A program made the translations under genes and the position numbers. DNA of 64,000 bases from a bacterium UBP6_UBA1177 (lineage in GTDB: Bacteria; UBP6; UBA1177): positions 7,858 to 71,857 of the forward strand of contig DBYV01000035.1 in NCBI GenBank assembly GCA_002310995.1. The letters are read 5' to 3'. Below, in pieces: positions 3,386 to 50,578 of this stretch (positions within the stretch are counted from its first letter, which is position 1; each line of letters starts with the position of its first letter). The notes beneath the pieces are model-generated. The model worked only from the letters and a program-made list of their open reading frames with translations, was not told the DNA's origin and did no database searches.

Positions 3386-3413
3386 TTTACAATCAGTAGT
3401 TTTCCAATATAAT
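3386..3413 (+). promoter_or_regulatory. putative sigma-70 promoter for the 3449-9115 operon
   Basis: TTTACA (3386-3391), a 16-nt spacer, then TATAAT (3408-3413), about 36 nt upstream of the TTG start at 3449. Confidence 0.3.
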
Positions 3414-3448
3414 TTCTGGCTTTTTGCTGTTTGATTTGAGGTATTTCC

Positions 3449-5467: not shown

Positions 5468-6699
5468 AAAAGTTTTTCTCTATTTTTTTCATATTTTTCC
5501 TTTTTTCATCTCTTTTTTGCGAAGATCTGACGATTGCTCAGTACATCGAATCGGCACAAAACGATCCTCGCCTTAAATCAAAAAAGGCGATGTCAGATTC
5601 CATCGAAAATTCAAACGACACACCCGGCATAAAAGGGCTTGAATTCCGAAGCGAAACGGGAAACTTCGACATTATGGAGCAGAAATACGCTCTCAGGCTC
5701 TATTTCAAAGGGTTCGGCGAGACAAAATCTTCGCGCGAATTTATAAAAAATATGCAGAACCTTCACAAACTTGAATATGCGTCGGCCCGCTCGGATGTCC
5801 TGTTTGAAAGATACAGCACGATTGTGACTTACATTCAGCACAAAAAAGAGCTAAAAATCATCGATTCGATGCGCGAACTTCTTTACGACAAGCTCGCTGT
5901 CACCACGAAAATGGGCGAAATCACCGGTGAAACGACCGAAATCGACAAAATGGATATCGACGACAAAATAACCGAAATTGAAATGCGTAAGATCGAGCTT
6001 GAATCGACTCTCGAATCGATTGAAACCTTGATAAAAAACGATACCGGAGCGGACAAAATCCCTGTTTTTGAAAGAGAAAAAATTGTTTCGGTCGATGATA
6101 TTGAAAAATTTGCGGAATCCCTGACTGAAATCCATGGCGCATCTAAAGCCGAAAACGACTACCAAACTCTGCGTTCGATAGTCGCACAGAACGAAATCGC
6201 TCTCGAAGAAGCGAAAGAGCGCGACTGGCTGAAATATATATCTCTCGAATACGACACAGACCACCGCAACGACAAGCCGTCACGCGGATTTTCGATAGGT
6301 TTTGCGATTTCGATTCCTGGATTTAAAAATAACCAGTCGTCACTGGTTAAAAAGAAACTGAAATCTTTGGAGCTTGCTTCTGATTTTAACATGCAGAAAC
6401 GCTTCAGGGAAGCAGAGATCATGACTGCTCTTCTGATGCTGAAACGAGAGATAAAACAATATAAAATGCTGTTGAAAAGGAAAGAGGAAGGGGAAAAAAG
6501 CAACATTTTTGCCAAATATTCGTCAATAGAGGGCTTAAACCCGATGATGGTCATCAAACTGAAAGAGAAAATCCTGAAAAAAGATCTGAAACTTGCTGAA
6601 CTGGAACTCAAAATCTACGAGAAATACATCAGTCTCGCATATCTTTTAGGGCTTTACGAAGACGGAAACAGCAACTTTCTCAGTGGGAAAAGTGAATAA
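5464..6699 (+). CDS. TolC-like outer-membrane factor (tentative)
   Basis: Signal peptide. LTIAQYIESAQNDPRLKS resembles the N-terminal motif of OMF/TolC proteins. Two coiled-coil-rich halves. The ATG overlaps the upstream stop (ATGA). Confidence 0.4.
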   Translation: MKKFFSIFFIFFLFSSLFCEDLTIAQYIESAQNDPRLKSKKAMSDSIENSNDTPGIKGLEFRSETGNFDIMEQKYALRLYFKGFGETKSSREFIKNMQNLHKLEYASARSDVLFERYSTIVTYIQHKKELKIIDSMRELLYDKLAVTTKMGEITGETTEIDKMDIDDKITEIEMRKIELESTLESIETLIKNDTGADKIPVFEREKIVSVDDIEKFAESLTEIHGASKAENDYQTLRSIVAQNEIALEEAKERDWLKYISLEYDTDHRNDKPSRGFSIGFAISIPGFKNNQSSLVKKKLKSLELASDFNMQKRFREAEIMTALLMLKREIKQYKMLLKRKEEGEKSNIFAKYSSIEGLNPMMVIKLKEKILKKDLKLAELELKIYEKYISLAYLLGLYEDGNSNFLSGKSE

Positions 6700-8203: not shown

Positions 8204-9115
8204 ATGAAAAACGAAAAAACTCGGAAAATCATAGAGATTTCACTTTTTGTCTTTTTGTTTCTTGTAATATTTTCAAGAGTTTACCTTGAAACGGCAGTAT
8301 TTGCAAAAAAGCCGTTTTTTTCTTATTTTGTGGCAACGCATCACTGCGCGTGGTTTACTTTCGTCTTCTTTTATTTCGCTCTCTGCGCCCGCTATATTTT
8401 AGGCTTGAAACCCGAAAAAATCCCTTATTTAGCCCTTCTCAGCCCGGTGATATACGTTCCGCTTCTCCATGCGTGGATTACAGGCGCAAACCTTAGACTC
8501 CAGTATATACGCGGCGACTTTTCAAAAGCGCTTCTTGACATTTTAACGCTCTACAAATTCAGCGAAAAAAACAGCCAGTTTTTCTTTGAAATGCTCGCTC
8601 TCCTCGTTATTTTTGCAGTTTTGAGCTACATCGTTTCACGCAGCGTTTTAAGAACAGTTCTTAACATACTTGTCGGTTTCTACGGCAGCATGTTTCTGGC
8701 CGGATTTCAGTTTTTCGGGGTCGCGCCGCGAACAAAAGCATACTTTCCGCTTAATACGGTTTTCAAAAACCACATTCTGCTTTCTTTAGTCTATTTCACA
8801 GCCGTGATTCTGGCATTTTCAATATGCTTTTTTCCTGAAATCAAAACTCTTGTAAAACGCGATTTCAAACCTTTGGGAATGGCTTTGGTTCCAGGAATCT
8901 TAATTCCGCCTACCATGTTCGACTTTTTGGAGAAATCACTGAATAGTGCTGATGCAATACTGCTTGCACTAACCTGTACAACGACTCTCTTTTCTCTGAT
9001 TTTTCTGCAGAAAGAAACAAATCTGCCCGGAGGACGTTTTTTCCCGTTTGTTTTTTCGGCTTTTTCGCTTGTTTTGATATTAGGAATAATATTCAGAGAT
9101 AAAGTTTTTATTTAA
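8204..9115 (+). CDS. polytopic membrane protein, unknown function
   Basis: 303 aa with about 8 hydrophobic helices. Starts 4 nt after the DUF4956 stop. No motif recognised. Confidence 0.4.
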   Translation: MKNEKTRKIIEISLFVFLFLVIFSRVYLETAVFAKKPFFSYFVATHHCAWFTFVFFYFALCARYILGLKPEKIPYLALLSPVIYVPLLHAWITGANLRLQYIRGDFSKALLDILTLYKFSEKNSQFFFEMLALLVIFAVLSYIVSRSVLRTVLNILVGFYGSMFLAGFQFFGVAPRTKAYFPLNTVFKNHILLSLVYFTAVILAFSICFFPEIKTLVKRDFKPLGMALVPGILIPPTMFDFLEKSLNSADAILLALTCTTTLFSLIFLQKETNLPGGRFFPFVFSAFSLVLILGIIFRDKVFI

Positions 9116-9633
9116 ATTCCGCTGACAATTTTCCACTTTCCGTCTTCTTTGATGAATTTCATCTGGTTATTTTCCGAAACTCTGTGATTCGTCATGCCAT
9201 CAGGCTGCATAAAGGCATTCTCTTCTGTCGGAGGTACTGTGCTTTTCATCTTGAATCTTACCTCAAAGAAAAATAGAAGTCTCGCCCTGTTTTCGTTGTC
9301 AGGATCAAACAAAAGATCTTTGATTATGCAGGTGATATTTACCTTTTCAAGGCTGTGGTAAGCATCCGAATTAAGGATTTCGACAAGTTTGTCGTAGTCA
9401 ATATCATCATCAGCCTCGTCCGTTCCGTTCGTGTCGTAGTAGTCTTTCGAAACATACTCAAGAAAAATCTCGGGGTTTTGTTCCTTGAAACCTTTAATGT
9501 AGTAGCCGAAAACCGTCAGAATCTCCTTCGAATCTGGTGTTTCCTCGATATTCGTCCCCTTGATCATTTTAGGGCTGCATGCGACAGTCATAAACATCGA
9601 AAAAACAATCATCAGCATCATCAATTTTTTCAT
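9112..9633 (-). CDS. NTF2/SnoaL-like lipoprotein (tentative)
   Basis: Start placed at the internal ATG 9633 behind GGAGGAACAA. Signal peptide with lipobox MTVAC. The C-terminal ...EDGKWKIVSGI ending is typical of NTF2-like folds. Last gene of the T2SS operon. Confidence 0.4.
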   Translation of the reverse strand: MKKLMMLMIVFSMFMTVACSPKMIKGTNIEETPDSKEILTVFGYYIKGFKEQNPEIFLEYVSKDYYDTNGTDEADDDIDYDKLVEILNSDAYHSLEKVNITCIIKDLLFDPDNENRARLLFFFEVRFKMKSTVPPTEENAFMQPDGMTNHRVSENNQMKFIKEDGKWKIVSGI

Positions 9634-9652
9634 TTGTTCCTCCTTTAAATAT

Positions 9653-11089
9653 TTATTCTTCCTCTCCGTCTTTTTCTTCAGCCGCAGGTTTTGGCGGTTC
9701 GGCATCGCCTTCATCTTCCTGACTTTCACGGGCCTTTTTGACAGCTTCGATCTCTTCACGGGCTCTTCGGATTTCATTCATTGCCGCTTCCTGAGCCTCT
9801 TTGAGTCTAGCTGCCTCCTCCTGTCGCATTTTTTCATCTTCTTCTCTACGCGCTCTCTCCTCTCTTTCCCGCTGTTCGCGCTCTTCACGCTCCGCGCGCA
9901 TCTTTTCTTCCTGCTCTTTTGCAGCTTCCTCCTTTCTTCTAAGCTCTTCCTCTTTGCGTTTGAGCTCGTCTTCTTTTTTCTTCAGTTCCTCATTTCCACC
10001 GTCTGCTTTTGCATCTTCTTTGTTCAAAGGAGCTGGCGGTGCGGCATTCAGTCTTTCCCTCTGTGGCAAACGTTCCTGTTTTTGAGGACGCTGCGGCCTT
10101 GACAAATTGTTCCTGCGCTGTTTGATATCGCCCCTTTCTTCTAACGGAACCCTCTTTTGTATTTTATTCATCTGAGGATTATTCAAGAAACCTTTGAGAC
10201 TAAAAGCAAAACTGTTTTCCTGCTCTCCTTTATAGGAGGAAAGCTGGCTTAAAAGCAAATTGAGCGCAACATTTTCGGTAATTTTAGCCATATCAGGAAC
10301 TTTTGCCGAAATCTCAAGATCAAGCCTTGATGACATAAAGTTCCTAATGTTCAAATTGAGTTTTCCTGTAGCTTCAAGTTCAACAATGCCTTTAATAATC
10401 AGTTTTTTAATATCTGCTTTGTTGTCCGCAATCTCTGCTGAAAGCTCCAGTTCGCCGATAATTATCTTTCCGACATCAAAATCACCCATCGGGGTCGGGA
10501 TTTTACCTCTAAGAACAACATCTGTACCGCTCAATTCTATCTTTCCGCTATATTTTCCCTCCTTATTACACATATTACCGCCGCCACTAAGCGCACCTGT
10601 CAGTACTACTTCAGCAAGAAACGGCTTCAGGACAGAAAGAGGAACTTCCGAAGCATCAAGCGAATAACACGGGTTTTCACTGGTATCGAACGATGCATCA
10701 AGCCCGCCGCCTTGCGAATTTATATCTTCTACATGAATATCTCCGGCAGGGTGCCCTCCCAATGTTGCAAACAACGAAGGTGAAAAAGAGAATAATGCAA
10801 AAGTAACAACTTTATTCCCTTTCTGAAGCAGAGAACCTTCCTCGAACGAAATATTTCCGAAAAGCGATACATTTACATCCTCTGCCAGCAGAGCAAGATC
10901 CCTTACAAAAAGCTGTTCATTGACTTTGGAAATAACAAAATCGTCTGGAAAAAACACCTTCATTCCGATCCAGAGACCTATAAAAACCGCAGCATTTACA
11001 AACAATGCTCTCTTTAAAAGTACCTGGACTTTGCCTGGAATAGGCAAGTTTTTGATTTTGTTAAATATTTCAGAAAATTTATTCGCCAT
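9653..11089 (-). CDS. GspN-like type II secretion protein with long Glu/Arg/Lys-rich C-terminal tail
   Basis: N-terminal TM helix, a periplasmic domain of about 300 aa, and the position after gspM in the G-to-N order. The C-terminal ~140 aa are almost pure E/R/K/A. Confidence 0.4.
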   Translation of the reverse strand: MANKFSEIFNKIKNLPIPGKVQVLLKRALFVNAAVFIGLWIGMKVFFPDDFVISKVNEQLFVRDLALLAEDVNVSLFGNISFEEGSLLQKGNKVVTFALFSFSPSLFATLGGHPAGDIHVEDINSQGGGLDASFDTSENPCYSLDASEVPLSVLKPFLAEVVLTGALSGGGNMCNKEGKYSGKIELSGTDVVLRGKIPTPMGDFDVGKIIIGELELSAEIADNKADIKKLIIKGIVELEATGKLNLNIRNFMSSRLDLEISAKVPDMAKITENVALNLLLSQLSSYKGEQENSFAFSLKGFLNNPQMNKIQKRVPLEERGDIKQRRNNLSRPQRPQKQERLPQRERLNAAPPAPLNKEDAKADGGNEELKKKEDELKRKEEELRRKEEAAKEQEEKMRAEREEREQREREERARREEDEKMRQEEAARLKEAQEAAMNEIRRAREEIEAVKKARESQEDEGDAEPPKPAAEEKDGEEE

Positions 11090-11627
11090 TTGCGCTCTCC
11101 TTTTTCATAGCTGCAACAACAAGCGAGACATCATAATTCTGTTTGTTGAAACGCTTTTTTATCGTTATCGAATCGACAAAAACGTAACGCCCTTTGTTTT
11201 CAAGCCCGTAAAGGAAGGTCAAGGTCTGATCAAGAGGGACTTCGCGAAGATTTAGTTCGATTCTTTCGATATTGATATCACCTTTTTTTCGCGGTTTTAT
11301 CTCTTTTATCGAACTTATCGGAATACCAACGCTCTCCTTGACAGCCGATATATCGGAATTGAGATTCACATTGCTCGAATCTATGCTGTCCTGCATTTTC
11401 GAAGCCTCAGCCTGAGCCTTTTTAAAAAGTTCCTTCTTGGAAACCATTTCCTGAATCATTTTTTCCTGCTCAACAATTGTATCCTTCCTGTCGTCTATCG
11501 CCGAACTCATGAAAAACCATATTGCGATAAAAATAAAAATCATTACAAAAGTAAGAAAAGCCACAAGGATGGTACGTTCGCGTTCGCTGAAATTGCCTAT
11601 TGCCTCTATAAGTTTTTCTTTCATCAT
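11079..11627 (-). CDS. gspM: GspM/PilO-like type II secretion protein
   Basis: 182 aa. N-terminal TM (ILVAFLTFVMIFIFIAIWFFM), a coiled coil and a small C-terminal domain. Called mainly from its position between the gspL-like and gspN-like genes. Confidence 0.5.
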   Translation of the reverse strand: MMKEKLIEAIGNFSERERTILVAFLTFVMIFIFIAIWFFMSSAIDDRKDTIVEQEKMIQEMVSKKELFKKAQAEASKMQDSIDSSNVNLNSDISAVKESVGIPISSIKEIKPRKKGDINIERIELNLREVPLDQTLTFLYGLENKGRYVFVDSITIKKRFNKQNYDVSLVVAAMKKESANGE

Positions 11628-11633
11628 ACCCTC

Positions 11634-13112
11634 CTAATCGTTGGCTTCCTTTCCTTTTTTCCTGCTCTTCTTAGCCTTTGGATCATCTTTTTTCGGTCCG
11701 GCATAGTTGAAGGAAATATTGAACGAACTCTTATCGCCTCTCGTGTTTATCTGACCTCTGTTTATCTCGTCAATCAAAGGGTCCTGTTCTAAAAGATCGG
11801 TGAATTTGTTAATGTCATCAAGACTACTGCTTGTTCCTACGACCCTGATCTTTCCCTCCTCCTTTATCGATATTTCGGAGACTTCGATTGTGCTGTTTTC
11901 AAACGTAAAATAAGGGAAAACTATTTCCATGATGTAGAGTGCACTGTAAGGATAAACCGCCTTTTTGTCGGCCGTACTAGCCTCTCCTTTTATCGATTTG
12001 TCCATTATCGACAACGCCTGACGAAGCGAAGGCATCTCCTTGCCGATAACATCCTTCATAAGTTGTTTTGTTCTCTCTTCGCCGGCCGTTATCCTTTCGT
12101 CCAGATACTTTATTCTCATTTCCATGCCGACAACAAGCATAAGTATTGCAGCAACATAGAGAAAAAGCGCAATTATCGCCCTCTTTTTAAGGAAAGCGAA
12201 TCCACCTTTGTAAGCGAAATCACCTGTTGCGAAATTTACTGTACTGTCGTTGTCCACAGATTCAGAAATCATCTCAAGCTGAGTCGCAAAATCATAAACT
12301 ATAAATTTCGAATTGGAAAAAACGGAAGAATCCATTTCACAGACTATCTTTTCAGATCCTGCGGGAAGAATACCGCCAATAAAGACTGCCGTTTCTCCCG
12401 GATCTCCGGCAAAAGGAGCAAAAAAAACGAATATCTTTTCAAAAAACGAAATTATTGTCTTGCGGATTCTCACTTCAATATCGCTCAGTTCGCCTGGTTC
12501 GCTGAGATCACCGGCGACGCTGAGCCATGAATCAAGTTCTGCCTGAGGGTCTTCGCCGCCGAAAATTGAAAGCATATCACTTCTGAGTTCGTTCAAACCC
12601 CCGTTTCTTACAATCTGACCGTCAGGAAAAACCATGATGACGTATTCATCGTTCACAAATATCGCCTTTTTCAGAGGAATATCTGACTTGAAGAAAAGGA
12701 CTTCCTCTGGAACTATGCTTCTGACCTTCTCTCTTGCCGAATCATCGAAATCAAGCAATGCCTTGCGGATGACATCCTTACCTGCCGCAAAAACATTCAT
12801 GTCGCTGCTTCCCTTCTGGAAGTTTTTGACCTCAATCATCATATCGTCCTCTTTGAACGGAGTTTCGGACTCTATATCCTGAGCGACAATTTTTTTGAGA
12901 TATGAATGTTTTACCGGAGGATAATTCCTAGCGTAGTAGAGCATTTCCCTGCCGGAGCAGATAAAATCTATGTAATCGAAGTTTTTAAAAAGCTCGGCAG
13001 CCTCTTCTTTACCGGCAAATTCACTCTTTTCAAAGGTCGTTTTGTTGTATTCCTTCGAAAAAGTGTCTATCAGGAATCCGCCGTTTGCCGCCCTGCATGA
13101 AGCAAATTTCAT
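11634..13112 (-). CDS. gspL: GspL-like (PilM/PilN-type) type II secretion assembly protein
   Basis: 492 aa. Cytoplasmic N-terminal domain, a single central TM (AIIALFLYVAAILMLVVGM) and a periplasmic C-terminal domain. Positioned between gspK and gspM. Confidence 0.5.
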   Translation of the reverse strand: MKFASCRAANGGFLIDTFSKEYNKTTFEKSEFAGKEEAAELFKNFDYIDFICSGREMLYYARNYPPVKHSYLKKIVAQDIESETPFKEDDMMIEVKNFQKGSSDMNVFAAGKDVIRKALLDFDDSAREKVRSIVPEEVLFFKSDIPLKKAIFVNDEYVIMVFPDGQIVRNGGLNELRSDMLSIFGGEDPQAELDSWLSVAGDLSEPGELSDIEVRIRKTIISFFEKIFVFFAPFAGDPGETAVFIGGILPAGSEKIVCEMDSSVFSNSKFIVYDFATQLEMISESVDNDSTVNFATGDFAYKGGFAFLKKRAIIALFLYVAAILMLVVGMEMRIKYLDERITAGEERTKQLMKDVIGKEMPSLRQALSIMDKSIKGEASTADKKAVYPYSALYIMEIVFPYFTFENSTIEVSEISIKEEGKIRVVGTSSSLDDINKFTDLLEQDPLIDEINRGQINTRGDKSSFNISFNYAGPKKDDPKAKKSRKKGKEAND

Positions 13113-41077: not shown

Positions 41078-41836
41078 GTGACAATCAACCAAGTTACTAA
41101 AGAGGAAATGTTATTGCTTGATGAATCACGTTCAAGATCACAAATTGTGATCTTGAACGATAAAAAAAGTCGAGGAAGCAATGTTAAATATCTGCCTTAT
41201 GCCTTTACAGAACAAGGGGTAGCGATGCTTGCATCTGTTCTTAAAAGTGATACTGCAGTGCTGACAAGCATCATGATTATAGATGCTTTTGTCGCTTTGA
41301 GGCGGTTTGTGCAGACAAATTCCCAAATTTTTCAAAGACTGGAGTTTATGGAAAAACGGCAGATAACCAGTGAAATTCACTTATTGGAACACGGCAAAAA
41401 AATCGATGAACTTTTCGACAAAATGGACAGCTATAAAATCGAGGACAGGCAGGGAGTCTTCTTCCAAGGTCAGATTTTCGATGCCTACGCAAAATTTGAG
41501 TCTTTTATTACCGAGGCTGAAAAAGAGATTGTTCTGATTGATAACTATGTCGATTTAACGGTTCTGGAACGCTTCGCCAAAAAGAAAAGCGGCGTAAAAG
41601 TCACGATATACACCTATCCCAAAACAAAAATCACACCTCTTGACGTCCAGAAATTCAACGAACAATATCTAGGGCTTGAGCTGAAACACACGGAAAAAAT
41701 CCACGACCGCTTTTTGATTATTGACGGAAAAATCCTTTACCACATCGGGGCATCGCTCAAAGATCTCGCAAAACAGTGCTTCGCTTTCGAAATCATCGAT
41801 TCATCGTGGATTCCAGAAATTATGAGGAATTTGTAA
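41078..41836 (+). CDS. ORF6N-family protein, apparently 5'-truncated
   Basis: GTG start. The sequence begins inside the ORF6N/KilA-N-like domain (..LPYAFTEQGVAMLASVLKSDTAV..IIDAFVALRR) and lacks the usual first ~50 aa. The C-terminal block is IVLIDNYVD...HDRFLIIDGKILYHIGASLKDL. Confidence 0.6.
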   Translation: MTINQVTKEEMLLLDESRSRSQIVILNDKKSRGSNVKYLPYAFTEQGVAMLASVLKSDTAVLTSIMIIDAFVALRRFVQTNSQIFQRLEFMEKRQITSEIHLLEHGKKIDELFDKMDSYKIEDRQGVFFQGQIFDAYAKFESFITEAEKEIVLIDNYVDLTVLERFAKKKSGVKVTIYTYPKTKITPLDVQKFNEQYLGLELKHTEKIHDRFLIIDGKILYHIGASLKDLAKQCFAFEIIDSSWIPEIMRNL

Positions 41837-42170
41837 CCGCCGCACGGCGCACCTTTCTGCCCGCCGTCAGCGACAATAATTTTTTATGTGTGAGAATTTC
41901 GTAAAAAAAGAACGCGAAATTCTTTCCTGAGAAATTTTCGCGAATGAAATCGTTCCTTTCTGCGGAAGAAATTTCAGAATTTCCAGTATGTAGGAAAACA
42001 CTCAACTTTGCGAAAAGAAATATTTTTACCAAGATTTTTCTGAAAAACTTTATTAAATTACAAATACAAATATAATTTTTGGCTTTTTTGAGGTTGTTCA
42101 TGGCTAAAAATCGAAAATATACTTTCAAAGCACGAAACATCTTTAGGCTTTATATTTCAGGGGAATTGAT

Positions 42171-43232
42171 ATGAAGTCGAGAAAAAAACTCAAAGCCTTA
42201 AGACATCAACGAGCGCGAGAAAGAGCTGAAATAAAAAAGCGCAGTCGTTTCCGAAAACGAAAGCGCAACAAAAGACTTTTACAGCGCAAAGCAGATATTA
42301 ATATCAGAAGAGCTATCAAACAAAAACCTAGCATATCCCAAACAGCTCCATCAAATTTTTCTCTAATCGATAATACAGATGAGGTTGTTGCCTATATCAA
42401 TAATTGCAAAAAATTATTACATGAGAAAGAAAAAGTAACAATTGATATTGCTAATATTCAAACCTTGACTTCTGACGCAATAGCTCTTCTGGTCGCGTGC
42501 GCAGATGACCCGCATTTTCGTGGTAAATATGGTGAACTATCAGGAAATGCTCCAAAAGATATAAAACTACTAACTCTATTCATGGAATCAGGTTTCTACA
42601 AATTTGTTAGAGCACACAGGTTTATGAAAACAGCACAAAAAGAAAGAGACAATTTACTTCACAAAGAAAGCAATTTTAAAGTTCAACCAGATATCGCCAG
42701 AGAAGCTTGTCTACATGGCACACAACATCTTTTCAACAATAAAGAACCTATTAATAAAGAACTTATTTCATGCTTGTATGAAATGATAATAGAAGCAATG
42801 TCAAACACCAACAATCATGCTAACAAAGATAAGGAAGGGGGAACAAAATGGTGGTTGTATGCATACAATGATCCTGAAGGAAAAACATGCTATTCTTTTG
42901 TGGATTTAGGTGTTGGAATATTTGAAAGTTTACCTGTTAAGATTTATAAGAAGATAGCTATGAAATTTGGTTTTTCTCACAATGCAGATCTAGTAAATGA
43001 CTTGTTAGAAGGCAAAATCAAGTCAAGCAAAAGAGAAGATAATAATATTAGAGGTAAAGGCATTCCACAAATTGCAAACAACAGCCAAAAAGATATTTTT
43101 AAAAGAGCTTTTATAATTAGTAATGATGTAAAAATTGATCTCAAATCAAGAAGAACAGAGAAATTATCTAATGATTTTCATGGCACATTATTATATTGGG
43201 AATTGACTAAACAAGGAGAGAACAATGGATAA
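42171..43232 (+). CDS. poly-basic N-terminus + STAS-like segment + GHKL (RsbW/SpoIIAB-type) ATPase/kinase domain protein
   Basis: The first ~50 aa are about half K/R. VTIDIANIQTLTSDAIALLVA is a STAS-like strand-helix. GHKL boxes: N-box EAMSNTNNHA, G1 VDLGVGIF, G2 RGKGIP. Confidence 0.5.
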   Translation: MKSRKKLKALRHQRARERAEIKKRSRFRKRKRNKRLLQRKADINIRRAIKQKPSISQTAPSNFSLIDNTDEVVAYINNCKKLLHEKEKVTIDIANIQTLTSDAIALLVACADDPHFRGKYGELSGNAPKDIKLLTLFMESGFYKFVRAHRFMKTAQKERDNLLHKESNFKVQPDIAREACLHGTQHLFNNKEPINKELISCLYEMIIEAMSNTNNHANKDKEGGTKWWLYAYNDPEGKTCYSFVDLGVGIFESLPVKIYKKIAMKFGFSHNADLVNDLLEGKIKSSKREDNNIRGKGIPQIANNSQKDIFKRAFIISNDVKIDLKSRRTEKLSNDFHGTLLYWELTKQGENNG

Positions 43233-43554
43233 GATTTGTATTAACATCAAAAATGATTTTTCAGATTCCCCGGGAGCACGTTACAGAAAAGATGGACCAC
43301 ACTCAGGACAAGAATTTTATGAAGATAAATTAAAACCTAAATTTGATGAAGCTCTTAAGCTGGGATTAAAATTAGAAATTGATTTAGACGGAGTTTGGGG
43401 CTATCCGTCATCTTTTGTATCTGGCTCTTTTGGAAAATTATCGCTAGAATATGGCGCAGACAAAGTATTAAAAAATATTGAGTTCATATCTAAAGACAGT
43501 GAAACTCGCAAATACAGAATTATTGAAGAAATAAAAAATCCAACAATTAAATAA
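43225..43554 (+). CDS. DUF4325 (STAS-like) domain protein
   Basis: 109 aa. LEIDLDGVWGYPSSFVSGSFGKL matches the DUF4325 core pattern (xDFxGVxxxxSSFxxExFG). The start overlaps the upstream stop by 8 nt (ATGGATAA). Confidence 0.55.
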   Translation: MDKICINIKNDFSDSPGARYRKDGPHSGQEFYEDKLKPKFDEALKLGLKLEIDLDGVWGYPSSFVSGSFGKLSLEYGADKVLKNIEFISKDSETRKYRIIEEIKNPTIK

Positions 43555-44166
43555 ATGAGAATTTTTTATATTATAATTGGCATTATTGCCGAAATCCTGT
43601 TCTTCCTAATACTATTTTATAGTACATGGTATTATAGTATTAATATCATCGACTTTTTGATGTTGATTATAACAATAACTATTTCGATAGTTGTTATATA
43701 TCTGACACAAGCTCTTAACAAAAATGATATCATTATAAATATGATAATCGATGACATCAAAGAACTGATTTCACTTTATGAACAAAATTCAAATCTTTTT
43801 CTGGAACTTAAAGAAAATCAATTAAAATTGAAGACAGCTAGAGATAGGGTGAATATGTTGTTTCACAAATCAGACCTTTTAATTGATTGTATAAAAAATG
43901 AGCTTGAAGAATCATTTCCGGGTTTTTTGAAAAAAGAAAACAAAAAAGAAAACAAAAAAGAAGACAAAAAAGAAGAGAAAAACTATATTGCTAAATTAAC
44001 TACTCCATATTATAATTGGGTGACTGGAGGAAAATTGTACGAGGAAAAATTTCGTATCGATTCTGAATTTATAAAAGATCACGAAAATTGTCTTCGCAAG
44101 ACCACTTCATCATTAAAGCTTGTTATTCATGAATTTGTAAGATATACTAAATGGAAAGGATTCTAG
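43555..44166 (+). CDS. two-TM membrane protein with cytoplasmic coiled coil, unknown function
   Basis: The ATG immediately follows the upstream TAA. Two N-terminal hydrophobic helices, helical heptad-like sequence, and the KKENKKENKKEDKKEEK repeat. Confidence 0.45.
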   Translation: MRIFYIIIGIIAEILFFLILFYSTWYYSINIIDFLMLIITITISIVVIYLTQALNKNDIIINMIIDDIKELISLYEQNSNLFLELKENQLKLKTARDRVNMLFHKSDLLIDCIKNELEESFPGFLKKENKKENKKEDKKEEKNYIAKLTTPYYNWVTGGKLYEEKFRIDSEFIKDHENCLRKTTSSLKLVIHEFVRYTKWKGF

Positions 44167-44348
44167 TTTCTCCCAAATACGGAATACAAACGTTAGATAA
44201 TATTAAAAACGGCGAATTATTTTGGGTGCCGAATCGGCAAAAACCCGCAAAAACCTTTTGAATACCTCGACCTTGACAGTGGTTTCGCCGCCGCCGCACA
44301 GCGCACAAAAGCACCTGAATTTAAACTTCAAAAGAGGTCGTAATCAGG

Positions 44349-44376
44349 TTGATTTCCTCACAAAAAACAATATAAT
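44349..44376 (+). promoter_or_regulatory. putative sigma-70 promoter for the methyltransferase operon
   Basis: TTGATT (44349-44354), a 16-nt spacer, then TATAAT (44371-44376), about 40 nt upstream of ATG 44416. Confidence 0.3.
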
Positions 44377-44415
44377 TTCAGGCTTTATTTGGGGATTGCG
44401 GTCTATGGGGTAAAA

Positions 44416-46668
44416 ATGGAAATAAAAATCGAAAATAACAAAATTTTTGCACCTCTGAAAAACAAATGGCTCGTCTATAAACCGGAAGAGGAAGTTAGAC
44501 AAAAGTATATATGCCGCTTGGTTGATAGTTACGGCTACTCTCTTGAACAAATGGCGCAAGAGCTGCAAGTTACAAATTCACAGCGTGGACTGGGGGCAGC
44601 AAGAGCTGATATTGTAATTTGGCGTAACAAAGAAACAAATAAATATCCTTTGATTGTTGTAGAATGCAAAGCTGAATCCGTTACAATTCATAAAGAAGAC
44701 TATTATCAGGGAATGAACTATGCTTCATGGGCTCATGCGAACTTTTTTGTAACAACAAACTTGAAAGAAACTCGTATTTTCAAGATTGTTGAAGGCGAAA
44801 TCCCGAACAAGCTTGAAGAAGTTGTTGATATTCCGGATGCGGCGAAAGCCAACGATCAAAAAGAAATTGATAAATTATTGAAGCAAACAAAGGCTTTTAC
44901 TCGTGATGAGTTTTCGAAACTGCTTTTCAAGTGTCACAATATCATTCGTAACAACGATAAACTTTCGCCTGAAGCTGCTTTTGATGAAATCAGCAAGATA
45001 CTGTTCATCAAGATTAGGTTTGAGCGTGATAATAGCGGAAATCAAATTTTCTCACTGAATACGTTCAAGAAAGACAAGGAAAGCTACGAAAGATACAAAC
45101 CTAAAGGCGGAGAAGATTTTTATCAGTTTTTATTTACTCAGACTAAACAACAGTTTGCCAATGACCATCTGTTTGATGACAATGCCAAAATTGAGATTCG
45201 TGAAAACAGCTTTGAGCAGATTGTTAAGGAATTGGAGATATATAATCTTTCTACAACTTCAGACGATGTAAAAGGAATCGCTTTTGAAAAATTCTTGGGG
45301 AAAACATTCCGTGGTGAGTTGGGGCAGTTCTTTACCCCGCGAACAATTGTTGATTTTATGGTTTCCATCCTTGATCCGCAGGAAGGCGAATATATATGTG
45401 ACCCGTGCTGCGGAAGCGGCGGCTTTTTGATTAAAGCATTTGAATATGTTCGAGAAAAAATAGAAAAAGATGTCGAAGCGCAAAAGGAATTAATAAAGCA
45501 GAAATACTACGGTGAAGATTACGAAAAGCTGTCCGAAGCCAAAAAACAAAAAATTGAAGATACTGTAGCAAAAGCATTCGCCTACATGAATGAAGAGCTG
45601 AATCTCAATAATGAGAAAGGGCGGTTGCGCACGCTGTCATTTGATTGCATTTACGGCACAGATGCCAATCCGCGAATGGCTCGAACTGCAAAAATGAATA
45701 TGATCATGCACGGAGACGGTCACGGCGGCGTTCATCACCACGACGGACTTTTGAATGTAAACGGAATTTTTGAAAACCGTTTCGATATTATTCTCACGAA
45801 TCCGCCCTTCGGTTCAAGAGTTGAGAAAGATTTGAAAATATCAGAAGCTGACAGATTTACCGATCAGGAAAGAATTAATGCCTATATAGAAAGATACGGT
45901 GATGCTTACAGAGAAGCGTTAAAACAGGTAAATGACAACATCGGAAAACCGCTTCTGAGTCTTTATAAAATAGACAACGGATTAACTGAGGTGCTCTTTA
46001 TTGAGCGTTGTCTGAATTTGCTAAAACCAGGCGGAAGAATGGGAATTGTTCTCCCGGAAGGTGTTTTGAACAACTCTAATCTTCAAAAAGTGCGCGAATT
46101 TGTTGAAAGCAAAGCTAAAATTTTGCTGATTGTTTCCATTCCGCAGGATGTTTTCATTGCTTCTGGCGCAACGGTAAAACCAAGTCTTTTGTTCTTCAAA
46201 AAATTCACTCAGAAAGAAGCAGAAGAATATGAGAAAATAAGAAAAGAAGCTGAAAAAACTGTTGAATTAAAATACGCAGATGAATTAACATCTATCGAAG
46301 AACAACTCTCCAAACGAGGGAAAGAAGCTTTACCAAAAGAACAAAAGAAAGAATTGAATGCAAAGAAAAAACAGATTCTGGAAAAGAAGCAAGACGAAAT
46401 TAAGGCAGAAATAAAAGAGCATTTTGACTATGAAATACCGATTGCCGAAGTAAAAAAAGCAGGTATCAGCACAACCGGTGCGGCCATTGAAAACGAACTT
46501 ATTCCATTGGCAGATGAATTTGCGCCATACAGAAAAGAGATGAAATTGTGGGAAAAACCAGAGAAAGAAACACAATATAAATCTGACGATAATGGTTTCG
46601 TTTATCGCATAAGGATAGCCAACCAAATTGTTGCTGAACCAGAAATTTTTTACGGACAGAAAAAATAG
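44416..46668 (+). CDS. hsdM: N6-adenine DNA methyltransferase (HsdM-like, gamma class) fused to N-terminal PD-(D/E)xK HsdR_N-type domain
   Basis: The N-terminus has ARADIVIW...PLIVVECKAES...FFVTTN, an HsdR_N-type nuclease-fold motif. The MTase has the AdoMet motif DPCCGSGGFL and the catalytic LTNPPFG. A Lys/Glu coiled coil lies near the C-terminus. The ORF-track start 44389 is also possible. Confidence 0.85.
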   Translation: MEIKIENNKIFAPLKNKWLVYKPEEEVRQKYICRLVDSYGYSLEQMAQELQVTNSQRGLGAARADIVIWRNKETNKYPLIVVECKAESVTIHKEDYYQGMNYASWAHANFFVTTNLKETRIFKIVEGEIPNKLEEVVDIPDAAKANDQKEIDKLLKQTKAFTRDEFSKLLFKCHNIIRNNDKLSPEAAFDEISKILFIKIRFERDNSGNQIFSLNTFKKDKESYERYKPKGGEDFYQFLFTQTKQQFANDHLFDDNAKIEIRENSFEQIVKELEIYNLSTTSDDVKGIAFEKFLGKTFRGELGQFFTPRTIVDFMVSILDPQEGEYICDPCCGSGGFLIKAFEYVREKIEKDVEAQKELIKQKYYGEDYEKLSEAKKQKIEDTVAKAFAYMNEELNLNNEKGRLRTLSFDCIYGTDANPRMARTAKMNMIMHGDGHGGVHHHDGLLNVNGIFENRFDIILTNPPFGSRVEKDLKISEADRFTDQERINAYIERYGDAYREALKQVNDNIGKPLLSLYKIDNGLTEVLFIERCLNLLKPGGRMGIVLPEGVLNNSNLQKVREFVESKAKILLIVSIPQDVFIASGATVKPSLLFFKKFTQKEAEEYEKIRKEAEKTVELKYADELTSIEEQLSKRGKEALPKEQKKELNAKKKQILEKKQDEIKAEIKEHFDYEIPIAEVKKAGISTTGAAIENELIPLADEFAPYRKEMKLWEKPEKETQYKSDDNGFVYRIRIANQIVAEPEIFYGQKK

Positions 46669-46674
46669 ACAACC

Positions 46675-47985
46675 ATGCAACAAAAAACACACACATATTT
46701 AAGATTCGTAAGATACAAAGATCTCAACCTATGGGATGTTAAACGCTTTTGGGGCGATTTAGATTTGCTATTTTCAAGCTCCGTTAGATTAAAAGATATC
46801 TTATCACCACACTTTGAACCAGTATCTAAAGAAGAAATGTTGAATAAACAGTGGCATATTATATCCAAAATCAACTTTGCTGGAAAATTGTTTTTAAGAG
46901 ATGTTTCGGAGGCTAAAACATTTAAGGGGAATTTAAATAAAATCGATTCCAACACACTGATCTATTCCAAAATAAATGTTAAACACGGATGTATATACTT
47001 CCATCCAGACAATGCTGAACCGTTTGGCGTAAGTTCTGAATATCCTGCTTACAAGATAGACGCATCAAAAGTAAGTGGAGCATATTTGGTAAAAGTCATA
47101 CAAAGCCAATATTTTAAAACCCTTTTAAACCAAAAAACTAGCGGAATATCAAAAGCAAGAGTTAAACCATACGAATTTCTTGATATAAAAATTCCGCTCC
47201 CATCTCTTTCAGAACAGCAAGCATTGATAAAAGCATACAATGATAAAATCCAGCAAGCTGAAACTTTGGAAAAACAAGCTGAACAAATTGGAAAAGATAT
47301 TGATGCTTACTTAAATGATGAATTGGGAATATCTCAATCTGAGAGTTCTGACGAACAAAATATAGTTAATGAATATAAATTCTTGCGATTCGTTAATTTT
47401 AAATATTTAAGAGAATGGGGATTCAACAAAATAATAAATCACAAAAAGAACCTATCGTGTCTTAACAATGATGCCAACGGCTATAAAACGACGCAATTAT
47501 CTGATATTATTAGTTTAAAAAGTGGCCTCTTTTTACCTAAAGACAAACAAAACGGAACCCTTTACGATGTTTATGGCGGTAATGGTATCACGGGAACTCA
47601 CAATGAATATTGTTTCTCTGGGAAAAGAGTGGTCATTGGACGAGTTGGAGAATATTGCGGAAATATACATTTAGTTGATGGAAATTATTGGGTAACAGAC
47701 AATGCTCTTATAGTTGACCAAAAAAGTGATAATATAACTTGGGAATACTTGGCGATAGCACTAAAATTACTAAATTTAAATCAATATAAAAATATTTCTG
47801 CTCAACCTGTAATATCCCAAAAGAAAATTTTGGTACTATCAATTCCACTCCCATCAATTGATATCCAAAATGTAATTGTAAAACACATAAACAAACAGAA
47901 AGAACAGATCAAGCAATTAAAACAACAAGCAGAGAATCTGAAAAAAGAAGCTTTGGAAAAATTTGAAAAGGAGATATTTGAGTAA
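46675..47985 (+). CDS. hsdS: restriction-modification specificity subunit (HsdS-like, two TRDs)
   Basis: Two variable halves are each followed by the conserved helix: IPLPSLSEQQALIKAYNDKIQQAE and IPLPSIDIQNVIVKHINKQKEQIKQLK. Confidence 0.85.
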   Translation: MQQKTHTYLRFVRYKDLNLWDVKRFWGDLDLLFSSSVRLKDILSPHFEPVSKEEMLNKQWHIISKINFAGKLFLRDVSEAKTFKGNLNKIDSNTLIYSKINVKHGCIYFHPDNAEPFGVSSEYPAYKIDASKVSGAYLVKVIQSQYFKTLLNQKTSGISKARVKPYEFLDIKIPLPSLSEQQALIKAYNDKIQQAETLEKQAEQIGKDIDAYLNDELGISQSESSDEQNIVNEYKFLRFVNFKYLREWGFNKIINHKKNLSCLNNDANGYKTTQLSDIISLKSGLFLPKDKQNGTLYDVYGGNGITGTHNEYCFSGKRVVIGRVGEYCGNIHLVDGNYWVTDNALIVDQKSDNITWEYLAIALKLLNLNQYKNISAQPVISQKKILVLSIPLPSIDIQNVIVKHINKQKEQIKQLKQQAENLKKEALEKFEKEIFE

Positions 47986-47987
47986 TT

Positions 47988-49745
47988 ATGAGAATAAAGT
48001 CGTTATACATAGAGGATTACAAAAATATAAAAAAACAGACTTTCGATTTTTCTGAATCAGATGGATATATTGCGTTAATAGGTCTCAATGGCTCTGGAAA
48101 AAGCAATTTATTAGAGGCTATAGGGTTGATTTTTAAAGGTTTTTTTAACAATGAAAAGATACCTTTTGTATTTGAGTTGCAATATAATCACGAAGGAAAG
48201 GAGTATATTCGTAAACCAAGAAGTGCTAAGATTGATAATGTTAAGGTCAAATCTTCTGACATGTTCAACCCGTCCTCTGTCATTGCATGTTATAGTGGTG
48301 AAGATTTTAGGTTGTGGAATTTAGTGTTTGAAGATTATTATATGCACTATTTTAATCAAGCAATAAAAGGCCTCTCGTTTTCTCCTAAATTAATGTATGT
48401 AAACAAGTATTGTTGGAAAATAGCTTTTATAGCATTGTTTTGTTCTTATAAGAAATCAACAAGTGATTTTTTAGAAAAATGCTTGCATATTACAGATTTA
48501 ACTTCTATTAATTGCCATTTTGATATAGATGCCTTGAAAAAAGAAAAATTTAAAGAAAATCAATCCCTTAAGTGGTTTAATAGAATAGAAGAACTGCAAA
48601 ATGAAAATACTAATAAAATAATTAATGCCAACACAATAAAAACTATAGACATGTCTATTTATGGCGTTACAGATTCCCAAGATAATAGTAAATACATATT
48701 CCAGTTTCTTTATTTATTATCAATCCCTGAAAAGAATTCTGAAAAGGGACAAACTATAGATAAACTTATAACCGATATCGAAATTGATATTAATGGAGTT
48801 AATTTCGACTATTTGAGTGAAGGCGAAAAGAAAATGATACTGATTACATGTATCACACAAATACTTGGCGATGAAAATTCGCTTGTATTACTTGACGAAC
48901 CTGACGCTCATGTTCATATTGCAAGAAAGAAGGAGTTATTAACAGCTATTGAATCTTTTGAAAGTCAAGCAATACTAACCACCCATTCCCCTATATTCGT
49001 CAATGAAATATATAAACGAAACAAAAATAATTTATTTTTTCTGGAAAACGGCTCCCTCAGTAACCCTGATTATATCAATAAATTAATACAACTTTCATCT
49101 GGTGAAATTGATTTCTTAAACGGATCTATTCTATTAAGTTCTAAAAAGATTCTTGTAACAGAAGGACCTTACGACAAAAGATATATAGAAAAAGCAATAG
49201 CTGTTCTCCAAGCCGAAGATTCACGATACAAAGAGTTTAGCCACATTGTCATAATTCCAAGCGGTGGTGCTGGTGAGAATTCAAAAACATTTTATGAACA
49301 GGTACTTCAACCACAAATCGATAAATATGATAAAATAGTATTCTTGTTCGATTATGACGGCGATGGATACACAGGATGGGAAAAAATACGCGATTTACAA
49401 ACAGCAAAGCTAACATCTATATTTTATCAAGACAACTATGATCCTGAAAAGACTAAAAAACCCGAACAAAAAGATACAATTATGCTTGAAGATTTGTTTC
49501 CAGAGGAATCATATAAAACCATCATCGACACAATTCATGAATGTAAAACACATAAAGATTTCAGAAATATAAGGTTAAAATTTGAAGATAAAGATGAAAA
49601 TAAAAAAAATAAAAATAAAAACCAAACCTTGGCGGATAGAATAAAACATCACATACAAAACAACTATAATGATTTTAAAAAGGAGTGGTTTAAAGGTTTT
49701 AAGCCGGTACTGGATAAGCTATTAGAAGTTTTTGATTTGGAATAA
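47988..49745 (+). CDS. OLD-family nuclease-like protein (ABC-type ATPase + TOPRIM)
   Basis: Walker A GLNGSGKSNLLEAIG, LSEGEKKM, Walker B LVLLDEPDAHVH and H-loop TTHSP. C-terminal TOPRIM-like ILVTEGPYDKRYIE and FLFDYDGDG. Confidence 0.7.
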   Translation: MRIKSLYIEDYKNIKKQTFDFSESDGYIALIGLNGSGKSNLLEAIGLIFKGFFNNEKIPFVFELQYNHEGKEYIRKPRSAKIDNVKVKSSDMFNPSSVIACYSGEDFRLWNLVFEDYYMHYFNQAIKGLSFSPKLMYVNKYCWKIAFIALFCSYKKSTSDFLEKCLHITDLTSINCHFDIDALKKEKFKENQSLKWFNRIEELQNENTNKIINANTIKTIDMSIYGVTDSQDNSKYIFQFLYLLSIPEKNSEKGQTIDKLITDIEIDINGVNFDYLSEGEKKMILITCITQILGDENSLVLLDEPDAHVHIARKKELLTAIESFESQAILTTHSPIFVNEIYKRNKNNLFFLENGSLSNPDYINKLIQLSSGEIDFLNGSILLSSKKILVTEGPYDKRYIEKAIAVLQAEDSRYKEFSHIVIIPSGGAGENSKTFYEQVLQPQIDKYDKIVFLFDYDGDGYTGWEKIRDLQTAKLTSIFYQDNYDPEKTKKPEQKDTIMLEDLFPEESYKTIIDTIHECKTHKDFRNIRLKFEDKDENKKNKNKNQTLADRIKHHIQNNYNDFKKEWFKGFKPVLDKLLEVFDLE

Positions 49746-49750
49746 ATATC

Positions 49751-50578
49751 ATGGGCAAGACAATAACAACATATCTGATTGACGGAGATCCGAAAGGAAC
49801 TCAGTATGTTTTCATCAGCAACAAGATTTGCCAGATGTACATAATCCCGCGTTCTAATCTGGCGATTTTGAATGAGCGGTCTGAGCTGTGGACTCCGGCA
49901 TTTTACATCCTGCTTGGTGAGGATGAGGCAACCAAACCCAAAGCCTATATCGGTGAAACTGAAAATTTTCGTGAACGAGTGAAAGACCACGACAGCAAGA
50001 AAGAGTTTTGGCAAAAAGCTCTGATTTTCATCGCAAAAGATGCCGCAATGACAAAATCCGACGTGCAATACCTTGAGCACAAAGCCATCAAAGAGGCAAA
50101 AATTTCAAATACTTTTGTGCTGAATGAAAACAAACAGACGCCGAAAGCCCCCAATCTTCCTGAATACAGAAAAGATGATATGGACGGATTTTTTGAAGAT
50201 GTGAAATTCCTGACATCTTTCATCGGATGCAACATATTTGACGTGGTTAAACCGAAAGAAAAACATTTGTTTTACACAAAAGGGCGCGGTTGCGAGGCTA
50301 AAGGTTTCTACGATGCCAAAGGTTTTACCGTTTTAAAAGGAAGCATCATCGCAAAGTCATCGGCTCCGTCGTTGACATGGAAGGAAAAACGCGAAAATCT
50401 GGTTAAAGAATACACTTTCGTGAACGGCGATAAATTGGAACTGGAATCTGATAAAACCTTCTCCAGCCCGAGCAGTGCTGCCGATTTCTGCCTCGGAAGC
50501 AGTAGCAACGGCTGGTTAGTCTGGAAAGACAAAGACGGTCAAACATTAGATTCAGTCTACAGAAAACAGTTGGGATAA
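49751..50578 (+). CDS. GIY-YIG nuclease-like protein with C-terminal DUF4357
   Basis: FYILLGE...AYIGETENFRERVKDHD is GIY-YIG-like. The C-terminal FSSPSSAADFCLGSSSNGWLVWKDKDG matches the DUF4357 pattern. Confidence 0.65.
   Translation: MGKTITTYLIDGDPKGTQYVFISNKICQMYIIPRSNLAILNERSELWTPAFYILLGEDEATKPKAYIGETENFRERVKDHDSKKEFWQKALIFIAKDAAMTKSDVQYLEHKAIKEAKISNTFVLNENKQTPKAPNLPEYRKDDMDGFFEDVKFLTSFIGCNIFDVVKPKEKHLFYTKGRGCEAKGFYDAKGFTVLKGSIIAKSSAPSLTWKEKRENLVKEYTFVNGDKLELESDKTFSSPSSAADFCLGSSSNGWLVWKDKDGQTLDSVYRKQLG

Follow-up and report, generated by a model that had tools for sequence, protein, structure and literature searches.

Introduction

The closest described relatives of the locus reported here belong to a kinase-STAS class that was defined in 2026. 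In one of its members CapK, a helix-turn-helix (HTH)-STAS-GHKL kinase activated by single-stranded DNA (ssDNA), phosphorylates a conserved Ser of the repressor CapS, which consists of a STAS domain and a winged helix-turn-helix (wHTH); CapK and CapS are encoded ahead of immune operons, and in 88 of 443 cases the capK-capS pair immediately follows a restriction-modification (RM) system (Chambers et al., EMBO J 2026, PMC13373217). In the other, the three-gene toxin-antitoxin system VapKSC, the STAS-GHKL kinase VapK phosphorylates VapS (STAS plus a short tail) and thereby frees the PIN toxin VapC; protection against phage Bas42 amounts to about 2 logs, and 36% of vapKSC operons are located within 10 kb of a defence gene (PMC13373217). 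According to the same authors, the boundary between immune and general stress pathways is blurred (PMC13373217). Here we describe a three-gene cassette from a bacterium of the lineage UBP6_UBA1177 (assembly GCA_002310995.1, contig DBYV01000035.1, forward-strand positions 7,858 to 71,857; this whole stretch of 64,000 nucleotides is referred to as the window), in which a predicted kinase of this class (gene 1, "K") and a single-domain STAS-like protein (gene 2, "S") are followed by a protein with two transmembrane (TM) helices (gene 3).

The trio is an unnamed, effector-swapped relative of VapKSC. Features of the window are collected in Table 1. Coordinates are given in window numbering, and L-numbers denote fetched contigs and loci carrying related trios.

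Results

Three coupled genes conserved as a unit

The three open reading frames (ORFs) of the cassette are co-directional. The end of gene 1 overlaps the start of gene 2 in ATGGATAA (43225-43232), and the stop codon of gene 2 (TAA, 43552-43554) abuts the ATG of gene 3 (43555-43557), exactly as laid out in an earlier sequence-only reading of the window; judging by these junctions, the genes appear to be translationally coupled. The AT-richness noted in that reading is equally evident, with a GC fraction of 0.33 and 0.28 over 42-44 kb and of no more than 0.39 up to 50 kb, against roughly 0.43-0.48 in the flanks.

The trio is conserved as a unit, and its recurrence is beyond chance. In species-representative genomes 131 of 171 pattern matches encode a relative, and relatives occur in 7 of 2.9 million viral contigs; 80 loci from the former and 7 from the latter were examined. 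Of the 89 loci in which ORF calling combined with hidden Markov model (HMM) searches detected gene 1, 87 have gene 2 beside it. Recurrence of both partners, which the sequence-only reading had put forward as a check, was found: a gene 3 family member follows gene 2, with order and coupling retained, in about 81 of 87 loci, the exceptions being mostly contig ends. Junctions across loci are for the most part overlaps of 1-4 nt, with some longer overlaps or short gaps. Hosts include Bacteroidota, Patescibacteria, Acidobacteriota, Fibrobacterota, Nitrospirota, Gammaproteobacteria, one metagenome-assembled genome (MAG) of Bacilli and one Woesearchaeota contig, in addition to the viral contigs. The window's own copy of the trio is also present on contigs from bovine gut metagenomes, in the Logan assembly SRR5324863, and in one MAG.

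Table 1. Features of the trio and its surroundings in the window
Feature	Position	Strand	Remarks
ORF6N protein, PADLOC PDC-S05	41078-41836		upstream of trio
16-nt direct repeat, left copy CCGCCGCACGGCGCAC	41837-41852	+	directly after ORF6N gene stop; left edge of promoter-plus-trio segment
Promoter-like motif AAATATAATTTTTGGCTTT	42068-42086	+	85 nt upstream of gene 1; putative promoter
Gene 1 ("K")	42171-43232	+	353 aa; ORF listing; predicted Ser/Thr protein kinase, RsbW/VapK type
Gene 1 polybasic tail, residues 1-52	42171-42326	+	modelled as helical hairpin
Gene 1 STAS-like alpha/beta domain, residues 54-170	42330-42680	+	topology of structure model; VapK alignment
Gene 1 GHKL (Bergerat-fold) kinase domain, residues 173-350	42687-43220	+	Foldseek; invariant motifs
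Gene 1 ATP site, N-box	42792-42821	+	
Gene 1 ATP site, G1 box	42903-42917	+	
Gene 1 ATP site, G2 box	43050-43061	+	
Gene 2 ("S")	43225-43554	+	109 aa; ORF listing; single-domain DUF4325/STAS-like protein
Gene 2 Ser63 codon	43411-43413	+	invariant; alignment of 56-83 sequences
Gene 3	43555-44166	+	203 aa; ORF listing; two-TM protein, candidate effector
Gene 3 TM helices	~43561-43620 and ~43645-43704	+	N-terminal hydrophobic helices
12-nt tandem repeat (family D2) inside gene 3	43930-43977	+	encodes KKENKKENKKEDKKEE
Gene 3 Thr157 codon	44023-44025	+	invariant residue
16-nt direct repeat, right copy CCGCCGCACAGCGCAC	44291-44306	+	between gene 3 and methyltransferase gene
Methyltransferase with N-terminal HSDR_N_2 domain	44389-46668		downstream of trio
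Specificity subunit	46675-47985		
OLD/PtuA-like (MADS3-like) ABC ATPase	47988-49745		weak Toprim match
GIY-YIG/DUF4357 protein, PADLOC PDC-S14	49751-50578		
SoFic-like Fic protein	50635-51606		

Gene 1 as a predicted STAS-GHKL kinase with a polybasic tail

Direct searches with gene 1 in Pfam, NCBIfam, PADLOC and PDB sequences returned nothing useful, including no HATPase_c and no HTH family match, and its identity is drawn from a structure model, conserved motifs and profile-profile comparison. The AlphaFold2 (AF2) model, based on 38 homologues, has a mean predicted local distance difference test score (pLDDT) of 88.9 and a predicted template modelling score (pTM) of 0.86, and consists of basic helices, an alpha/beta domain and a C-terminal alpha/beta sandwich. 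Its basic helices span residues 2-24 and 26-51. Of the first 52 residues, 26 are Lys or Arg and three Asp or Glu, in agreement with the sequence-only description of an opening stretch that is about half basic. Across the gene 1 family this composition is kept (mean K+R 35%, D+E 6%), and the sequence of the tail is not.

The next segment, residues 54-170, shows the DSSP order beta-beta-alpha-beta-alpha-beta-alpha-beta, which is the STAS topology. For the remainder, the best fold matches in the PDB (Foldseek) were the CheA P4 ATP-binding domain (probability 0.97), SiaB from its complex with SiaC, MprB and the EL346 kinase, and a search of BFVD added only weak matches to viral histidine kinases. 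The N-box is of the RsbW/histidine-kinase type (ExxxNxxxHA). Among 84 family members, E208, N212, H216 and A217 in the N-box, D245, G247 and G249 in the G1 box and R294, G295 and G297 in the G2 box are invariant or nearly so, and G338 and T339 are invariant as well. The earlier assignment of gene 1 as a STAS-like segment joined to an RsbW/SpoIIAB-type GHKL core is thus upheld by model topology, by fold matches and by conservation of the very N-box, G1 and G2 motifs that it had quoted. Distant homologues reach HATPase_c_2 (E 2.6e-5) and HATPase_c with sub-threshold scores.

A word-based search recovered 377 members of the gene 1 family, all of about 340 aa and all without names. An exhaustive profile search of 1.84 billion representatives, each standing for a cluster at 50% identity, yielded 898 clusters at E<=1e-30, a number that grew to 2,733 at E<=1e-3.

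Gene 2 as a DUF4325 protein and gene 3 as a two-TM protein

Gene 2 was identified as DUF4325, a STAS-like family (43.5 bits, with the Pfam gathering threshold at 23; E 2.6e-11; residues 27-93), as had been anticipated from the sequence. This is the sole domain detected in the Pfam search, with no wHTH, HTH or other DNA-binding domain. Residues R19, G24, F31, S63 and F69 are invariant in alignments of 56-83 sequences. An hhalign comparison of the N-terminal domain of gene 1 with gene 2 was not significant (probability 1.9%).

Gene 3 begins with two hydrophobic helices, consistent with the two TM segments originally assigned to it, separated by a loop of about 8 residues. The distribution of charges suggests an N-in/C-in topology, with both termini cytosolic. 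The AF2 model (pLDDT 78.5) is all helical and places a cytosolic four-helix bundle after the TM helices, in place of the coiled coil that the sequence-only reading had seen there. The KKENKKENKKEDKKEEK (KKE) repeat listed in the same reading likewise does not stand as a feature of the family: it is a window-specific insertion of 12-nt tandem repeats (Table 1), modelled with low pLDDT and missing from the three closest homologues, which makes replication slippage a more probable origin than a functional motif. Gene 3 matched no Pfam family at E<=0.1, no PADLOC or NCBIfam model and no PIN domain, and a word-based search for homologues returned three relatives only. It is the fastest-diverging member of the trio, with a median identity to the window copy of 19%, compared with 39% for gene 1 and 50% for gene 2, and Thr157 is its sole invariant residue besides a near-invariant Met1. 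A weak match to a PHROG of Rz-like spanins (E 0.005) was treated as compositional.

Comparison with VapKSC, CapK-CapS and partner-switching pairs

For comparison with the characterised systems, VapK, VapS, CapK and CapS sequences were taken from the appendix of PMC13373217, and a VapK family alignment was constructed from 833 matches. With small alignments, hhalign of the gene 1 family against the VapK family gave a probability of 39.7% (E 3e-4); with 84 against 120 sequences this rose to 94.3% (E 1e-7) over 241 collinear columns. From about residue 84 of gene 1 the alignment runs through part of the STAS domain, including its strand-helix, and then through the three ATP-site boxes (N, G1 and G2) as far as the C-terminal GT motif. 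PF02518 is found in many members of the VapK family. VapS itself is a DUF4325 protein in Pfam (E 2.7e-17), i.e. of the same family as gene 2, and in a search of PDB sequences the gene 2 profile has the VapS crystal chain 9z7o as its second match (E 0.16). In gene 2, S62-S63-F64 pairs with S53-S54-F55 of CapS, of which S54 is the phospho-site, and adjoins S48 of VapS. On these comparisons genes 1 and 2 are remotely homologous to VapK and VapS, whereas gene 3 bears no relation to VapC.

The resemblance to VapKSC extends to architecture. Both systems consist of three co-directional, coupled genes, with the kinase encoded first, the STAS protein next and the third protein last; both kinases have a STAS domain followed by a GHKL domain in collinear arrangement; both STAS proteins are DUF4325 members with an invariant Ser/Thr at the start of helix 2 (phosphorylation of gene 2 being putative); and both occur in diverse bacteria, often near defence genes. 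They differ in the third protein, a PIN nuclease in the case of VapC and a two-TM protein with a four-helix bundle in the case of gene 3, and in the conserved polybasic tail of about 50 residues, an extra of gene 1 that lies upstream of the region aligning with VapK. Sequence similarity is low, with the gene 1 family profile scoring VapK-family members at no more than about 27 bits, and the trio is centred on Bacteroidota, Patescibacteria and Acidobacteriota, not on enterobacteria.

CapK-CapS shares with the trio a kinase composed of an N-terminal extension, STAS and GHKL domains, paired with a STAS substrate whose phospho-site aligns with the conserved Ser of gene 2. However, the extension of CapK is an HTH, whereas gene 1 has a basic helical hairpin in its place, and CapS acts as a repressor through a wHTH that gene 2 lacks. 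Moreover, CapK and CapS form a unit of two genes that precedes a variable operon; the trio has a third gene firmly attached and no conserved genes downstream. RsbW-RsbV, SpoIIAB-SpoIIAA and SiaB-SiaC, in turn, resemble the trio in combining a histidine-kinase-type GHKL Ser kinase (ExxxNxxxHA, DxGxG, GxG) with a single-domain STAS substrate, but gene 1 additionally carries a fused STAS domain and the basic tail, and the third component here is a membrane protein.

None of the three proteins matched PADLOC-DB v2 at E<=0.1, and NCBIfam gave no meaningful match. No account of a trio made up of kinase, STAS protein and membrane protein emerged from a literature search covering DUF4325, VapKSC and the combinations STAS/anti-phage and GHKL/STAS/phage, and neither membrane effectors nor DUF4325 are mentioned in PMC13373217. 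The sequence-only impression of a trio that matches no named system therefore holds for the cassette as a whole but not for its kinase-STAS pair, which has its precedent in VapKSC and CapK-CapS. Given the homology of genes 1 and 2 to VapK and VapS, the system is not of an unknown kind.

Relatives in temperate phages and plasmids

Genes 1 and 2 correspond to phrog_3364 and phrog_5816, respectively. The match of gene 2 to phrog_5816 is confined to the C-terminal 93 of 441 profile positions, a hint that in some phage proteins the DUF4325 domain forms the end of a longer fusion. In Marinobacter phage AS1 (L094, MK088078, positions 3431-5809 of that genome) a CI-like HTH gene is followed by AS1_41, a gene 1 family member with a basic tail (E 9.5e-26), AS1_40, of the gene 2 family (E 7.5e-31), and a protein with one TM segment. 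In the IMG/VR contig L086 (positions 8403-11713) a CI-like S24 repressor gene ends 7 nt before the trio. The repressor and trio are on the same strand in both, with the kinase gene directly after the repressor gene. The gene table of Francisella phage KIRK lists, in a row, a CI repressor, a 293-aa protein (putative kinase), a DUF4325 protein and a TM protein (PMC7924643). The third gene differs among the phages, being of 125-159 aa with one TM segment in AS1 and KIRK. More distant trios of kinase, DUF4325 and small protein were seen in a Helicobacter prophage, whose third protein has an N-terminal TM segment, and on a Leptospira plasmid, where the pair is labelled "ATP-binding protein" and "STAS-like domain-containing protein" at NCBI.

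The repressor-adjacent slot occupied in AS1 and L086 is the position of rexAB in lambda. RexAB is a prophage-encoded abortive-infection system that uses a membrane protein. The likeness is positional and functional only: the cassettes of AS1, L086 and KIRK follow a CI-like repressor and end in a small membrane protein, but there is no known sequence or domain relationship between RexAB and the trio. RexA is not known to be a kinase, and RexAB has no known STAS component.

Genomic neighbourhood

The trio of the window sits in a defence island (Table 1), as recognised from the sequence alone. The RM operon that had been reported downstream does contain a methyltransferase and a specificity subunit; there is no HsdR, however, and an OLD/PtuA-like ATPase is found instead. 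This operon (44389-50578) is atypical in its lack of the HsdR helicase-nuclease, and the PADLOC models mad2, mad3 and mad5 match it at moderate scores.

Six long contigs (L095-L100) were subjected to independent gene calling with Pfam annotation, and five of them, together with the window, place the trio in a defence island. Its neighbours are a methyltransferase, an SNF2 helicase, an AAA_23 ATPase and a Schlafen-like protein in L095; a type I RM system, an integrase and an nSTAND3-PIN protein in L096; a type ISP RM enzyme and HicB in L097; a Gabija-like pair, Abi_2, an ISL3 transposase and RloB in L098; and SoFic and a HEPN protein in L099. Frequent neighbours of the trio overall include type I methyltransferases and specificity subunits, ResIII helicases, OLD/Gabija-like ATPases, GmrSD, HpaII, ParE, RhuM, integrases and resolvases. 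No single family recurs: among the two nearest genes per side in about 76 loci, no Pfam or PADLOC family was present in more than 4 of the 148 or 116 neighbouring proteins, indicating that the trio is independent of any particular neighbour. Only 9 of about 85 loci have a relative of the window methyltransferase within 10 kb, in variable positions, and coupling of the trio to the downstream RM-like operon was rejected on the grounds that neighbours are not conserved across loci.

Two further loci share parts of the island. The closest trio from the genome collection, with 65% identity in gene 1, is that of a Prevotellaceae MAG (L005, JAQXTH010000006.1, position 5628 onward), in which a close homologue of the window GIY-YIG/DUF4357 protein (E 2.6e-172) and a Fic protein are encoded a few kb upstream; this suggests exchange of island modules between rumen and gut bacteria. 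In L002, a bovine gut contig (ERZ909607, k127_138338), the identical trio precedes a truncated HSDR_N_2 fragment and rearranged pieces of the genes that lie upstream in the window, an arrangement that is either a real rearrangement or an assembly chimera.

Flanking repeats, promoter-like motif and minor ORFs

The sequence CCGCCGCACRGCGCAC has two mismatch-free copies in the 64 kb, 2,454 bp apart from start to start, which bracket the promoter-like motif and the trio. With up to 3 mismatches four matches were found, compared with 0.16 expected from a shuffle control. The repeat could mark the boundaries of cassette insertion; an empty site (the ORF6N-methyltransferase junction with a single copy of the repeat) was not seen in two metagenome scans.

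The promoter-like motif upstream of gene 1 shares CAATATAATTTNNGGCTTT with a site at 44368-44386, 3 nt before the start of the longest methyltransferase ORF and about 31 nt before an in-frame ATG at 44417, and with an unrelated site at 3405-3423. Three matches are not clearly above chance, as 3 of 100 shuffles reached that number. CAATATAATTTNNGGCTTT may represent a host promoter consensus, in which case the trio would be transcribed from one promoter and the RM-like operon from another. Scans for sigma-70 promoters and terminators were at or below chance level, and Rfam detected nothing near the trio.

A 24-codon ORF, MAKNRKYTFKARNIFRLYISGELI (42100-42174), ends in an ATGA overlap with the start of gene 1. 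No comparable conserved upstream ORF exists in 66 related loci; the ORF is therefore probably fortuitous and was dismissed. On the minus strand, a 106-aa antisense ORF (41820-42140) extends over the intergenic region upstream of gene 1 and has been gene-called in a public contig (L004); with no family match and a low-complexity sequence, it is probably spurious. Finally, the 5' part of the ORF6N/PDC-S05 gene contains a perfect 15-nt inverted repeat with a 1-nt spacer (CGTTCAAGATCACAA T TTGTGATCTTGAACG, 41129-41159).

Discussion

The domain identities of the trio, the homology of genes 1 and 2 to VapK and VapS, the conservation of the three genes together and their placement in defence islands and beside prophage repressors are directly supported by the data presented above. 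On balance, and with some reserve, we favour a reading of the trio as an autonomous, kinase-gated, toxin-antitoxin-like anti-phage cassette that acts by abortive infection. In an uninfected cell, the STAS protein encoded by gene 2 would bind the cytosolic helical domain of gene 3 and keep it inactive. An infection signal, most likely nucleic acid such as ssDNA, would be sensed by gene 1 through the STAS/GHKL groove and/or the polybasic tail, upon which the kinase would phosphorylate Ser63 of gene 2. The phosphorylated protein would then let go of gene 3, allowing it to oligomerise and to damage or depolarise the membrane, so that the infected cell is stopped before phage release. We infer the activity of gene 1 on Ser63, the nature of the trigger, the interaction between genes 2 and 3, the toxicity of gene 3 and the protection against phage, as well as the binding of nucleic acid by the tail. 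The role of gene 3 as a membrane-acting effector is suggested by its membrane topology, its small size, a cytosolic C-terminal domain available for regulation and its rapid divergence relative to the other two genes.

Several observations weigh against this scheme. Foldseek E-values for the GHKL fold of gene 1 are modest (5.8e-3 at best), though the matches agree with each other, and comparisons of gene 1 with single VapK and CapK sequences are weak (E 0.019 and 0.4, respectively). The model of gene 3 was built on an alignment of four sequences and its Foldseek matches are generic helical bundles only (E > 0.27), with no recognisable pore-forming or enzymatic family. VapS inhibits VapC partly via a C-terminal helix, and the short tail of gene 2 may or may not act in this way. 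The polybasic tail could bind anionic lipids instead of nucleic acid, and one of the six long contigs, L100, shows no defence neighbours.

It is also conceivable, if unlikely, that the trio contains no toxin at all and serves membrane-linked stress signalling, with gene 3 as a sensor or anchor through which envelope or phage-adsorption stress is signalled to the kinase, and with an output on other cellular targets that need not be antiviral. The lack of a recognisable toxin family in gene 3 and the resemblance of its bundle to signalling four-helix bundles, e.g. the chemoreceptor ligand-binding domain (probability 0.95, E 0.64), are compatible with such a role, as is the blurred boundary between immune and general stress pathways noted by Chambers et al. 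Yet the short loop between the TM helices leaves almost nothing outside the cell for sensing, no output domain or conserved partner gene was found beyond the trio, and the placement in defence islands and beside prophage repressors speaks for a function in conflict.

A classical anti-sigma-type partner switch, the logic that the sequence-only reading had invoked, seems a little less probable still. Here the gene 1 kinase would hold gene 3 inactive, as RsbW does with sigma B, and would normally keep gene 2 phosphorylated; a fall in ATP during infection would flip the switch, whereupon unphosphorylated gene 2 would compete for the kinase and free the effector. The domain assignments behind this idea, i.e. 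the pairing of a kinase with a STAS protein, hold well. In its favour are an N-box of the RsbW/SpoIIAB type, a gene 2 product that consists of a lone STAS domain and has a conserved Ser, the presence of the partner-switch pair SiaB-SiaC among the best fold matches of gene 1, and the invariant Thr157 of gene 3, which could mark a contact or target site. In the closest characterised homologue, VapKSC, the arrangement is the opposite, with the STAS protein binding the toxin (PMC13373217), and this precedent favours a STAS antitoxin that is freed by phosphorylation. Nor was a sigma factor, a PP2C-type phosphatase (which would be needed for reset) or a diguanylate cyclase partner present among the family matches reported for flanking genes (top-25 lists, 264 neighbouring proteins); the gene tables of the six long contigs and the island of the window likewise contain no sigma factor or PP2C phosphatase, in keeping with the original remark that the locus has no sigma factor.

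Thr157 could play a more direct part. In a variant that we consider speculative and distinctly unlikely, the kinase would gate gene 3 itself by phosphorylating this residue, the DUF4325 protein would serve as a competing pseudo-substrate and the polybasic tail would be the sensor of phage nucleic acid. If this were true, the trio would represent a membrane effector switched by phosphorylation, with a mechanism distinct from that of VapKSC, and would found a branch of membrane effectors that is also repressor-adjacent in temperate phages.

We regard it as quite improbable that the cassette is in origin a temperate-phage module for the phage's own use, in lysis timing or lysogeny, and is only secondarily found in bacterial islands. 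The PHROG matches of all three genes, including the weak spanin match of gene 3, and the related trios in the immunity regions of three temperate phages (the KIRK kinase being putative) would fit such an origin. However, viral contigs account for very few of the relatives in comparison with species-representative genomes, phage genes are not near most of the loci, and in the phages the trio lies on that side of the switch where the repressor is encoded and apart from the lysis genes, with the AS1 lysozyme on the opposite strand and beyond cro. So placed, it would probably be expressed in the lysogen, as exclusion genes encoded by prophages typically are. A CapK/CapS-like transcriptional controller of the adjacent methyltransferase/ATPase operon, suggested by the location of the window trio directly upstream of an RM-like operon and by the association of CapK/CapS with immune operons and RM systems, is the least likely of all and very hard to sustain, mainly because gene 2 has no DNA-binding domain and the downstream genes vary (with gene 1, too, devoid of an HTH, a conserved gene 3 interposed between the pair and those genes, and the methyltransferase operon equipped with its own copy of the promoter-like motif).

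Returning to the favoured reading of a kinase-gated anti-phage cassette, what is new here is that the kinase-STAS class comes to include a membrane effector, further phyla and the immunity regions of prophages, along with an additional polybasic tail; the logic itself would no longer surprise a specialist. Should the cassette prove protective against phage, the kinase-STAS switch of VapK and VapS would amount to a general control module, portable between unrelated toxins (a PIN nuclease in one case and a membrane protein in the other), and its range would extend from enterobacteria to Bacteroidota, bacteria of the candidate phyla radiation, Acidobacteriota and temperate phages. The family, with about 900 clusters, has no model in PADLOC v2 or NCBIfam, and cataloguing it would put a label on a recurrent "hypothetical" trio in gut, rumen and environmental genomes. 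In combination, the polybasic tail and the membrane effector would offer a handle on the signal that this class of kinases senses and on the manner in which a STAS protein restrains a membrane protein.

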